Shown here: piece after piece, positions 3,238-32,073 of the stretch
Numbering within the stretch: position 1 is the stretch's first letter
How the letters are laid out: each line of letters starts with the position of its first letter
Source: a virus
Length of the DNA stretch: 42,748 bases
Reading direction: 5' to 3' (one strand)
IMG/VR virus record: IMGVR_UViG_3300013383_000009
Coordinates: 1-42,748 of that record
The notes under the pieces: model-generated
Told to the model about the DNA's origin: nothing
What the model saw: only the letters and a program-made list of their open reading frames with translations
Database searches by the model: none
Translations under genes and position numbers: made by a program

Positions 3238-4315
3238 ATGCGGAACAGCTCTTGTCCCGGGCGCTGTATATTGCCATCTCTGTGGCAAAAAACAGGTAAC
3301 AGAGCGGCGCAAGGCATTGAAGCGGGCAAACGGCACCGGAACTGTATACAAACTGGCTGGGCGTAGAAAATCGCCTTGGGTGGCCGCAAAAAACAAAGTG
3401 ATTATCGGGCATTATGAGCGCAAAACGGACGCTCTGGACGCTTTGGAGCGGTTGAACGGCAAGAGTTTAACGGAGCGGTATAATATGACCTTTGCGGAAG
3501 TCTTTGATGCTTGGAAAGAGGAGCATTACAAAGAGATCGGCAAGCAGGGGATAGAATCATATAACAACGCCTACCGCATATTTACGCCGTTGCACGGGAA
3601 AAAGTTTCGTGATCTCCGCACCGCAGACTTTCAGGCCGTACTTGACCCACACATGACCAAGAGCCATTCCACCGTGAACAAGTACAAGCAGCTCATAACG
3701 CAGATGTCGAACTGGGCAATCCGGGAGGAAATCTGCACAACAAATTTTGCAAAGTTTGTCCGGCTGCCGGAGAATGTCAAAAAAGAAAAGGACATCTTCA
3801 CGGAGGAAGATATCCGAAAATTGGAATCCGACAACAGCGATGCGGCGAAAATTGTCTTGATGCTGCTGGCAACGGGTATGCGTATTGGAGAGCTGTTTTT
3901 TTTGCCGCTGGCAGACTATCACGGCGATTATGTGATCGGCGGTGAAAAGACCGAAGCCGGACGAAACCGAATTATCCCCGTTCGCCAGGAGGGGAAAAAA
4001 TACTTTGCCTACTTTGCGAAGCGAGCAACGGGGGAGCTGCTGTTATCCGGCTACGATGGGCAAAAAGTCCCAGCAAACTTCCGCAGGCGTGATTTTTACC
4101 CACTCCTTGACCGGCTGGGCATAGAGCGCAAGACCCCACACGCCACACGCCACACATACGCATCCCGGGCGGTAAAAGAGGGATTGCCCCCGGAAATGCT
4201 GCAAAAAATACTCGGACACGCCGATTATTCCACCACCGCAAACATATATACACACATCGACGCGCAGACACTTGTGGATGCTGTTACTAACACGTTACTA
4301 ACAAATAAGAAATAA
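3221..4315 (+). CDS. int: Tyrosine integrase with N-terminal zinc-ribbon
   Basis: ATG at 3221 after GAGGAAG. N-terminal CIKCG...CHLCG. C-terminal HATRHTYAS...LGHADYSTTANIYTH gives the R..HxxR..Y catalytic signature. Confidence 0.92.
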   Translation: MSNCIKCGTALVPGAVYCHLCGKKQVTERRKALKRANGTGTVYKLAGRRKSPWVAAKNKVIIGHYERKTDALDALERLNGKSLTERYNMTFAEVFDAWKEEHYKEIGKQGIESYNNAYRIFTPLHGKKFRDLRTADFQAVLDPHMTKSHSTVNKYKQLITQMSNWAIREEICTTNFAKFVRLPENVKKEKDIFTEEDIRKLESDNSDAAKIVLMLLATGMRIGELFFLPLADYHGDYVIGGEKTEAGRNRIIPVRQEGKKYFAYFAKRATGELLLSGYDGQKVPANFRRRDFYPLLDRLGIERKTPHATRHTYASRAVKEGLPPEMLQKILGHADYSTTANIYTHIDAQTLVDAVTNTLLTNKK

Positions 4316-7801: not shown

Positions 7802-8009
7802 TTTCATTTTCCTCCTTATGATAGGTTGCCGTGGAGATGCACAGCACCGCGCCCAGGAACGTGTCCACGGCGGTGATGGTGGTGACGATCTCCTGGGAGT
7901 ACGGCCAGGCCCACACGGCGGACAGGGCCGCATACAGCGTGGCGATGGCCGGCAGGACGATGATGACCACCCACTTGAGAATGTCATACAGCTTGTCGGG
8001 AATCTTCAT
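7794..8009 (-). CDS. Holin (phi LC3 / Phage_holin_1-like)
   Basis: ATG after AAAGGAG. Translation begins MKIPDKLYDILKWVVIIVLPAIATLYAALSAVWAWPYSQEIVTTITAVDTFLGAVL. Lies immediately upstream of the amidase. Confidence 0.85.
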   Translation of the reverse strand: MKIPDKLYDILKWVVIIVLPAIATLYAALSAVWAWPYSQEIVTTITAVDTFLGAVLCISTATYHKEENENG

Positions 8010-26484: not shown

Positions 26485-26551
26485 CGCGAGCGCACGGAAT
26501 CGAACCGTGACTTCCTCAATCAAGGTGTGCGACCATTACACCACCACTCGC
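26485..26551 (-). ncRNA. tRNA-like element B (67 nt): canonical acceptor, D and T arms with a truncated anticodon arm
   Basis: Minus-sense GCGAGTG GT GGTG-TAATGGTCG-CACA ... CACGG TTCGATT CCGTG CGCTCGC G. Only 16 nt (c CCT TGATTG AGG aagt) lie between the D and T arms, against 22-23 in a canonical tRNA. No CCA is encoded. Confidence 0.5.
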
Positions 26552-26555
26552 TGAC

Positions 26556-26623
26556 AATAAGCGCCCGGATTCGAACCGGAGTTTCCGTTGGCTCGGCGTT
26601 TTCCCCCTAAACTACGGCTTATT
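26556..26623 (-). ncRNA. tRNA-like element A (68 nt): acceptor, D and T arms with a truncated anticodon arm
   Basis: Minus-sense (A)ATAAGCC GTA GTTT-AGGGGGA-AAAC g CCG AGCCAA CGG aaac TCCGG TTCGAAT CCGGG CGCTTAT T. Same 3-bp/6-nt mini-hairpin layout as element B. Its 5' end overlaps the stop codon of the upstream gene. Confidence 0.45.
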
Positions 26624-31389: not shown

Positions 31390-32073
31390 CCTGTTGATTT
31401 TTGGTAAGCAGACTATTTAGGACGCATCCCTTGTAGCGGTCTGCCAGCGCATATCCGCACTTTCGGGCAGGCGCTATGCCATTTGCCCACGGCAGCGGTT
31501 CTCCGCTTTTGGAGCGGCGCTGCGGTCCTGCCCCGCTTTAGCACTTCAGGGAAAGTCCCCGTCACTCGCTGTGGTCTCCCCTTACGGGGCACCTGCGCCA
31601 CATATTGGTCGTCTTCCCGCTTAGATTGTCACACGCTACCGGCAAATACGCTTCGAAAAGTCGTATCCCCTATTCCGTCTGGTCAAACCGGTCTTGACGC
31701 ATCAAGACAAGCGCAGTTTTCAGCGAGCATTGTCATTTCCATGTGAGCCACGACGAACGGTCTCACAGTGTCCGGGCGCTACCCGGCCTCTTGTGCAAGC
31801 GGCTGGACTCGAACCAGCGACCAATGGAATTCAATCGCATATCCATTTGCGCGATAAAGCTCTACCGACTGAGCTACGCCTGCATATAACAACAGCCCAT
31901 AGGTTTCCCTACAGGCTGTTTGTGCCGGTATGACCTTTCGGTGCCAGAAGGTGCGCCCATTACCGACGGCGCATATAGTATCGAAAGGAGGAGAGATGAA
32001 AGCTACATGGTGTAGCCGGGGTGGATGTCTTGGCTTTTGCCCAATCATCCACTATACACATTTTACCACATCA
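31390..32073 (-). ncRNA. Candidate large structured non-coding RNA (class unresolved; GOLLD/ROOL-like context)
   Basis: No credible CDS in 684 nt. An extended -10 (TGgTAAAAT, plus 32060-32068) sits at the 5' side. Many minus-sense hairpins carry GAAA, GUAA or UGCG loops. A tRNA-like module is embedded. Confidence 0.5.
31794..31883 (-). tRNA. tRNA-like module, 90 nt, with a non-canonical 40-nt D-to-T region (identity unresolved)
   Basis: Minus-sense GCAGGCG TA GCTC AGTCGGTA GAGC ...40 nt... GCTGG TTCGAGT CCAGC CGCTTGC A. The best anticodon arm is ATGCG-AUUGAAU-TCCAT (one C.C mismatch, anticodon UGA), preceded by a 17-nt insertion. Alternative helices ATCGC/GCGAT and AATGGA/TCCATT interleave. 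No CCA is encoded. Confidence 0.55.

Follow-up and report, generated by a model that had tools for sequence, protein, structure and literature searches.

F41 (srn277) is a small RNA of Streptococcus pneumoniae TIGR4, and its family is represented in Rfam as SpF41_sRNA (RF02435). According to PMC3395615, F41 appears as a species of 103 nt on Northern blots, its deletion attenuates sepsis in mice and transposon sequencing (Tn-seq) reveals fitness defects; PMC12323649 reports it in just 4 of 385 pneumococcal strains. The RNA is found in low-molecular-weight Grad-seq fractions, is bound by the 3' exonuclease Cbf1, which trims its tail, and pulled down RNase Z, as did most csRNAs (PMC7196914). Neither "tRNA-like" nor "prophage" appears in the text of the latter study, the F41 passages of the two former papers describe the RNA neither as tRNA-like nor as phage-borne, and literature searches found no paper in which this RNA is presented as a tRNA mimic of phages. 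The present work concerns two tandem tRNA-shaped elements, A and B, in the viral record IMGVR_UViG_3300013383_000009 of IMG/VR, which was analysed over its whole stretch of 42,748 nucleotides (the window). These elements are real, and they form one self-contained phage small-RNA gene of two non-decoding tRNA-shaped domains. Its sequence and architecture place the RNA in the SpF41/F41 family, as a diverged and dimeric member. What is already known is the RNA family and the F41 phenotype; the tRNA nature of the family, its breadth, its embedded promoter and its linkage to a protein gene appear to be undescribed, and its role in phage remains conjectural.

The gene consists of the following parts:

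26661-26633, minus strand: predicted small-RNA promoter (promoter scan, 10 of 12 matches with TG), with -35 element TTGAAA at 26661-26656, a 17-nt spacer, TG at 26641-26640 and -10 element CATAAT at 26638-26633
26623-26556, minus strand: tRNA-shaped domain A (tRNA and family covariance models), with acceptor stem AAUAAGC/GCUUAUU carrying a C.C mismatch at 7:66, D arm GUUU-AGGGGGA-AAAC, stub CCG-AGCCAA-CGG, linker AAAC and T arm UCCGG-UUCGAAU-CCGGG
26552-26485, minus strand: tRNA-shaped domain B (family and tRNA covariance models), with acceptor stem GCGAGUG/CGCUCGC, D arm GUGU-AAUGGUC-GCAC, stub CCUU-GAUU-GAGG, linker AAGU and T arm CACGG-UUCGAUU-CCGUG
26481-26440, minus strand: intrinsic terminator (terminator scan), a 15-bp hairpin at 26481-26448 followed by UUUUUGUUU

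The two domains lie head to tail between the genes of MGGRG-132, a protein of the family phrog_9479, and of a DUF4417 protein. Their site, their strand and the gap of 4 nt between them are as given in a preliminary description of this DNA, and the short distance from D arm to T arm noted there amounts to 17 nt in both (one nucleotide, a 12-nt hairpin and a 4-nt linker). Other details needed amendment. The acceptor stem of 7 bp ascribed to both domains does not hold for A, which has 6 bp plus the mismatch at 7:66. This mismatch is typical across the family, and in the fold of the predicted transcript the acceptor of A is extended outward via -1:73 to -3:75. The T arm, described as perfect, contains one U.G pair in A. 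A stub made of a 3-bp stem and a 6-nt loop fits A, while family-wide a 4-bp stem with a tetraloop is the better description. The start of A had been placed on the stop codon of MGGRG-132; in fact, this codon (TAG, 26614-26612) occupies positions 9-11 of A, and the domain therefore also overlaps the last three sense codons of the gene. Overlooked in that description were the promoter and terminator, the coupling to MGGRG-132 and the identity with the SpF41/F41 family.

A local search with the Rfam tRNA model RF00005 gives 31.2 bits for A (26622-26556), which exceeds the gathering score of 29, and 28.1 bits for B (26550-26486). In the middle of the anticodon arm, where the model expects 11 nt, A and B each have 6 nt. 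ARAGORN calls neither of them in default, mitochondrial, mammalian-mitochondrial or intron modes, and it forces B into a "tRNA-Gln(ttg)" only at -ps90, with the score threshold lowered to 90%. An Rfam search of the whole window at gathering thresholds gives a single match, a 90-nt tRNA at 31794-31883, and returns neither A nor B. The outcome that the preliminary description had named as fatal to its reading, a canonical cloverleaf with an anticodon from a standard caller or full-length tRNAs at homologous loci, is found neither in the default, mitochondrial and intron modes of ARAGORN nor at about 150 homologous loci.

These loci carry the same arrangement after every phrog_9479 homologue examined. 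A family covariance model, R1, was built from window-type sequences and gives 72.6 bits for A (E 3e-20) and 76.6 bits for B (E 2e-21). In its 15-sequence seed, from which loci L019 and L021 were left out because MAFFT misplaced their D-stem 3' strand, the cloverleaf plus stub is 94% paired and 14 of the 21 pairs change on both sides. When 39 distinct model-aligned sequences are considered, 93% of the cells are paired against about 42% in slid controls, and changes on both sides occur at 20 of 21 pairs, covering all four helices; compared with the family, A itself has compensatory changes at 1:72 and 2:71. The tertiary core of a tRNA is maintained as well. U8:A14 is kept in 62 of 65 sequences and T54:A58 in all 65. 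The Levitt pair 15:48 is G:C in 16 cases and A:U in 13, with zero G:U or A:C combinations, and 19:56 is G:C in 48 and U:G in 8, the U:G being present in all eight members with a UUGAAAU T loop.

The stub is variable in sequence and constant in form (CCUU-GAUK-GAGG, CCGC-GNRA-GCGG, ACGG-UGAGAG-CCGU and others), and it is kept across elements of Streptococcus, Clostridia, Negativicutes and Coriobacteriia. This variation in sequence and loop argues against a role as a base-pairing seed. In some members, insertions of 30 to >100 nt take the place of the stub. The larger inserts, of about 30, 90 or >100 nt instead of 12, occur in L016 (3403-3551), L011 and L012 (3391-3475), L032 to L036 (for example, L032 3000-3082) and L022, L023 and L068; those of 30 nt share UGAUGUAUGG...CCACUG and have a slight likeness to a k-turn (box C/D-like) motif.

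A canonical anticodon arm is seen at none of the approximately 150 loci. Since the tRNA-like core is kept and none of these loci has such an arm, the RNA is selected as a tRNA body and not for decoding. The proposal of the preliminary description that a shared non-canonical architecture reflects selection rather than decay is thus borne out: the stub is kept at all loci, and helices and tertiary pairs covary. Its other option, that of relics of tRNA genes, fails on the compensatory changes found throughout and on the lack of a full-length tRNA at any locus. Decay of tRNA genes from a phage tRNA cluster could be imagined, given that tRNA genes are frequent in phages and that B weakly resembles tRNA-Gln(UUG) under relaxed ARAGORN settings; however, the same stub recurs across distant bacterial groups and the compensatory changes extend to all helices and tertiary pairs, so that the idea is effectively refuted.

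Hardly more credible is the notion of decoding tRNAs with an odd anticodon arm, for example a frameshift or stop suppressor with an 8-nt loop. The acceptor, D and T arms are of tRNA grade, and the tertiary core is present in A and B. On the other hand, neither these domains nor the family have an anticodon arm with a 5-bp stem and a 7-nt loop, and there is no conserved anticodon, since the loop is a GNRA tetraloop or a large insertion in many members. Inspection of the sequence shows no encoded CCA in A or B. Furthermore, -1:73 covaries as a base pair, so that position 73 would be paired rather than a free discriminator, 7:66 is usually mismatched, and F41 keeps its terminator hairpin.

The tandem form is rarer than the single one. 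The close relatives L001 and L002 have a single element, as do most family members. The pair is intact in three metagenomic contigs (L189, L190 and L192) and is cut by the contig end within the second copy in a fourth (L191); the MGGRG-132 proteins of these four are 84-92% identical to that of the window, and one of the contigs has a different gene context. They contain pair-preserving substitutions, for example in the D stem of A, where GUUU/AAAC has become GUUC/GAAC. The tandem thus recurs with changes that preserve pairing, indicating that both copies are maintained.

The RNA gene appears to have its own signals for initiation and termination. The promoter, which is predicted to be strong and of the sigma-A type, is embedded in the last codons of MGGRG-132, in the part that encodes the C-terminal helix (...LVEKINRIWHN...), and the predicted start at about 26626-26625 coincides with the first base of the extended acceptor stem of A. 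Among 42 distinct loci, a TGn-extended -10 element is present in 40 and a -35 element (TTGnnn) at a distance of exactly 17 nt in 38. The -10 element ends 6-13 nt before the RNA element, and in most loci 6 nt before it, by which transcription should start at the first base of the acceptor stem. For the Asn residue whose codon ends the -10 element, AAT is used in 33 cases and AAC in none, as against 168:118 elsewhere in the same genes; the TTG of the -35 element is present in 37 of 37 genes, and the residue encoded by the first -10 codon is variable (Y, H, D, N, E). This codon pattern points to selection on the promoter as DNA, that is, to a synonymous-site constraint. In the fold of the predicted transcript (about 185-189 nt), A, B and the terminator each form a domain of their own (z = -3.5). 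A terminator also follows the element in the related loci displayed and forms part of the Rfam SpF41 model.

These signals bear on another suggestion of the preliminary description, namely that the elements punctuate a polycistronic mRNA as sites of processing by RNase P and RNase Z. In the late mRNA, cleavage at A would also remove the stop codon of MGGRG-132. Their shape is the form recognized by both enzymes, they are located between co-directional genes, overlapping the upstream stop codon, and RNase Z is among the proteins recovered with F41 (PMC7196914). Such a main role is nevertheless improbable. The element has a conserved promoter of its own, from which transcription should start at its first base, and a terminator of its own behind it; stand-alone copies with both signals have no operon to punctuate, and F41 accumulates as the full 103-nt species from promoter to terminator (PMC3395615, PMC7196914).

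The affiliation with SpF41 is apparent from searches in both directions. Members from streptococcal phages (Javan83 and others) score 84-108 bits with RF02435. Domain B of the window together with the terminator reaches 44 bits (E 8.6e-6), which is below the gathering score of 52, and domain A does not match this model. Conversely, R1 detects bona fide SpF41 members at 52-65 bits, and it gives 52-79 bits for L003, L026, L047 and L020, the loci that reach 84-108 bits with RF02435. The window RNA has the succession of elements that characterizes SpF41: a closing stem, the stub hairpin and the T-arm hairpin, then an intrinsic terminator.

The RNA is tightly linked to one protein family. It is located at the end of the phrog_9479 gene in 68 of 68 loci (65 loci fetched from IMG/VR and three phage records) and follows this gene also in 18/18 and 4/4 further loci. 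A DUF4417 gene is found within 3 kb in 66 of the 68, upstream or downstream and regardless of the position of terS, terL and portal genes, and on the same strand in all but three reverse-oriented loci (L001-L003). A search that started from DUF4417 yielded 80 loci: 18 with both the RNA and phrog_9479, 62 with neither and none discordant. DUF4417 is therefore rejected as an obligate partner, as 62 of 80 DUF4417 loci are devoid of the RNA. The MuF-Ntox50 toxin was also rejected as a partner; MuF is within reach in just 13 of 68 loci.

Scans for the RNA pattern itself give a complementary picture. In viral contigs, phrog_9479 is directly upstream in 66 of 74 loci, and of the eight exceptions, seven are short contigs (8-11 kb) in which the RNA stands by itself close to one end. 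In a scan of one genome per species, a full phrog_9479 gene is present in 19 of 46 loci; the loose DNA pattern also gave unrelated genome matches (Sphingomonas and others), which were removed by the covariance model. In the other 27 loci, only a promoter-bearing gene stub, the RNA and the terminator are left, and examples of such orphan chromosomal RNAs are located downstream of eno or beside RelBE-like pairs. Members occur in many Streptococcus species, Gemella, Megasphaera, Blautia, Acetatifactor and Clostridium, and also in Collinsella, Slackia, Eggerthella and Atopobium. By this pattern, the RNA and phrog_9479 constitute one cassette, usually beside DUF4417, and the RNA can persist alone.

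The proteins of one of the short contigs, L323 (8.2 kb, element at about 7810-7880), include a cI-like repressor, a replisome organiser and a DnaC-like loader; another matches TerS weakly, and structural proteins are lacking. By its gene content, it looks like a satellite of the phage-inducible chromosomal island (PICI) type. L273, L289, L295, L329, L338 and L345 are further PICI-like contigs with the RNA alone, and at the end of such 8-11 kb elements the stand-alone RNA keeps its own TGnTATAAT promoter and terminator. Stand-alone genome loci include L095, L101, L121 and L132; in streptococcal chromosomes the RNA is found beside eno or RelBE-like pairs. This stand-alone type may include the F41 locus of pneumococcus (SP1142/SP1143).

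The element is found close to terS, terL or portal genes, terminally in satellite-like elements and, in streptococci, in the vicinity of eno. Taken together with the frequent targeting of tRNA genes by integrases, this could suggest a role at the DNA level, as an attachment or recombination site or as a packaging signal, similar to a tRNA gene, for integrases or terminase. However, the position relative to the packaging genes varies, the G.U wobbles and strand-specific covariation imply that an RNA fold is selected, a conserved promoter and terminator flank the element, and the pneumococcal homologue is an abundant RNA. A DNA site is therefore very improbable.

The neighbouring protein genes are as follows:

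27456-27010, minus strand: MGGRG-148, a small basic protein with the same MGGRG N-terminus (list of open reading frames)
27010-26612, minus strand: MGGRG-132, phrog_9479 (E 1.8e-52)
26427-25780, minus strand: DUF4417 gene (Pfam DUF4417, 1.1e-56)

The family phrog_9479 has >1000 homologues in 469 clusters at 50% identity, and a profile search finds it almost always as a stand-alone protein of about 130 amino acids. An AlphaFold2 model is beta-rich with a C-terminal helix, and Foldseek against the Protein Data Bank (PDB) gives nothing informative (best E 0.41, to ToxR and SidI fragments). The invariant His, Asp and Glu residues (D79, H84, H90, H92, H97 and E99) suggest a metal site. The stop codon of MGGRG-148 overlaps the start codon of MGGRG-132 (27010), and MGGRG-148 has no match to a Pfam or PHROG family. 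Tandem small basic proteins that are otherwise unrelated begin with MGGRG(A/G)xSG, two in the window and five in L052 (2294-4422); this common N-terminus suggests a shared signal or docking peptide. In two phrog_9479 representatives (P0250 and P0280), a ParB N-terminal domain (ParB_N) is fused to the phrog_9479 core, and there it replaces the MGGRG N-terminus. ParB_N is fused to DUF4417 in L052, a combination that a 2025 preprint describes as common in phages. By these fusions, of ParB_N to DUF4417 or to the phrog_9479 core, the proteins of the module are linked.

Based on homologues and on a GGGGG ribosome-binding site, DUF4417 starts at ATG 26427, the open reading frame from 26463 entering the terminator hairpin. 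Its AlphaFold2 model (pLDDT 83) gives weak TIM-barrel-like matches with Foldseek (E >= 0.025), and a PDB sequence search has no informative result. PADLOC and NCBIfam contain no informative match for phrog_9479 or DUF4417, and PADLOC has none for the neighbouring proteins. In L003 (Streptococcus phage Javan83_0030), the gene at 3430-4107 is annotated as a "DNA modification methylase" and matches DUF4417 by tblastn; the label is probably wrong.

Some further features of the window and of related phages are worth recording. The minor capsid protein (Phage_min_cap2; 25811-24168, minus strand) has a C-terminal Ntox50 toxin domain (E 3e-17) and is followed by a 68-codon reading frame (phrog_1865; 24167-23961, minus strand), possibly for an immunity protein; the pair may be a MuF-type polymorphic toxin system. 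The 90-nt element at 31883-31794 (minus strand) is called tRNA-Ala(cgc) by ARAGORN and scores 46.5 bits with the Rfam tRNA model. It has good acceptor, D and T arms, with 34 nt instead of the usual 17 nt for the anticodon arm, and its middle does not form a 5-7-5 arm. It is located after a terminator-like hairpin and upstream of a Rha-family gene, matches one fecal phage record at 91% identity, and may be a third non-canonical tRNA-like RNA of the phage. A related phage contig (L014, 3556-3626) contains an Rfam GP20-b RNA (RF03003, 48.3 bits), which is unrelated to the tRNA mimic.

On the basis of this information, it is possible to speculate about the function of the RNA. On balance, we lean towards an autonomous small-RNA gene of the SpF41 family whose product is a protein-binding mimic of tRNA shape, which would either serve as a decoy or be the partner of phrog_9479. 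The carrier would be a temperate gut phage of Firmicutes (Bacillota). Transcription from the promoter in the last codons of MGGRG-132 would begin at the first base of A, proceed through the two domains and end at the terminator. Each domain retains the determinants of the L-shape, namely the acceptor/T-arm helix and the D arm, together with its contacts (U8:A14, 15:48, G18/G19 with the T loop, and T54:A58). The replacement of the anticodon arm by a 4-bp stem with a tetraloop implies that the RNA cannot decode. It would act on a protein by its tRNA-like shape and not by base pairing, presumably titrating or recruiting a factor that reads the acceptor/T helix and the elbow. Such a factor might belong to the host or to a rival element and be titrated; alternatively, the RNA might be the partner or antidote of the phrog_9479 protein, which is co-inherited with it in phages and would be its most concrete candidate partner. 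The idea in the preliminary description of a decoy or substrate for enzymes that recognize the acceptor/T minihelix is compatible with the evidence.

Several observations weigh against this explanation. The binding partner is a putative one, identified by no computation made here. With no encoded CCA and a paired -1:73, no discriminator is left free, and mimicry of a mature 3' end would need processing. The recovery of RNase Z with F41 is not specific for tRNA shape, as most csRNAs behave in the same way. The persistence of the RNA alone in satellites and chromosomal remnants implies that phrog_9479 is not needed in cis, and comparison of the phrog_9479 and DUF4417 models with PDB, PADLOC and NCBIfam yields no informative match. 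For this phage, moreover, the promoter is a predicted one.

A narrower proposal is that the RNA is an antidote or cofactor of phrog_9479, reminiscent of type III toxin-antitoxin systems, that the constitutively produced mimic binds this small His-rich protein and neutralises or activates it, and that the orphan RNAs provide immunity to, or interference with, phages that carry phrog_9479. The protein never occurs without the RNA (68/68, 18/18 and 4/4 loci) and the RNA often occurs on its own (27 of 46 genome loci and seven satellite-like contigs), which fits an antidote or cofactor relation. Furthermore, the RNA has a strong promoter that is independent of the operon of the protein gene, and the invariant residues suggestive of a metal site would suit this proposal. 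However, the coupling could stem from the physical overlap by which promoter and stop codon are shared. Toxicity or RNA binding of phrog_9479 is conjectural; the protein matches no defence or toxin model and no known fold. Known type III antitoxins are short tandem repeats that are cut by the toxin, whereas A and B are diverged tRNA-shaped units rather than near-identical repeats, and most relatives have one. We regard this proposal as unlikely, though not negligible.

A broader picture is doubtful yet conceivable. The RNA, the small His-rich protein phrog_9479, the other MGGRG proteins and ParB_N/DUF4417 may form an undescribed phage ribonucleoprotein module that captures or disarms a host or rival-element factor by tRNA shape, for example a defence enzyme that acts on the acceptor end, or that controls the activity of the protein itself. 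PICI-like satellites would have taken over the RNA alone for use against helper phages.

The analysis gives an identity to an orphan Rfam family and to the virulence-associated F41, namely that of a tRNA mimic of mobile elements in which the tertiary core of a tRNA is intact and the anticodon is missing. The family is widespread in phages of gut Clostridia, Negativicutes, Coriobacteriia and Streptococcus and in PICI-like satellites, and the promoter of the RNA is written into the coding sequence of the partner gene. Co-inheritance with phrog_9479 and the link to ParB_N/DUF4417 provide concrete candidate partners for three uncharacterized families. If the decoy or antidote idea is true, it would represent a new use of tRNA shape by mobile elements, and if there is a ribonucleoprotein module, a mechanism for pneumococcal F41 would follow too.

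Finally, the RNA can be compared with other tRNA-like systems. With canonical phage tRNAs (RF00005) it has three arms (acceptor, D and T) and the tertiary core in common; it differs in having neither an anticodon arm of 5 bp and 7 nt nor an anticodon nor an encoded CCA, in the pairing of -1:73 and, for A, in the mismatch at 7:66. Like tmRNA with SmpB, it keeps the acceptor/T helix and the elbow, has no anticodon arm and is accompanied by a small dedicated protein. It departs from tmRNA in its 3:70 pair, which is A-U or G-C and not G.U, in having a D stem and in lacking a reading frame for a tag. The phrog_9479 model matches no SmpB structure, and ARAGORN found no tmRNA. In YrlA, a Y-RNA-like mimic, both termini of the RNA are located at the stem that binds Ro, and the "acceptor" is closed, which is a topology different from that of the window RNA, and Rfam searches of the window gave no match to the YrlA family. 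The likeness is that YrlA RNAs are bacterial and phage non-coding tRNA mimics that keep the D/T elbow (Chen et al. 2014, PMC4201824).

The vertebrate mascRNA and MEN-beta RNAs (RF01684) are likewise tRNA-like cloverleaves with a shortened anticodon arm that do not decode, and B scores 32.7 bits (E 7e-5) with their model, below its gathering score of 42.5. RNase P and RNase Z liberate mascRNA from a long transcript, of which it forms the 3' end, and CCA is then added. This RNA is eukaryotic; the window RNA has its own promoter and terminator. The resemblance is one of analogy and not of homology. The closest system remains SpF41. The acceptor stem of its streptococcal members is longer, with 9 bp and bulges, and present in a single copy per locus, whereas the window transcript has two diverged domains; the Rfam structure line, moreover, draws the D region unpaired. 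SpF41 and the window RNA agree in the junction, the CCUUGAUKGAGG stub, the T arm and the terminator, and the members from streptococcal phages also follow a gene of the phrog_9479 family.

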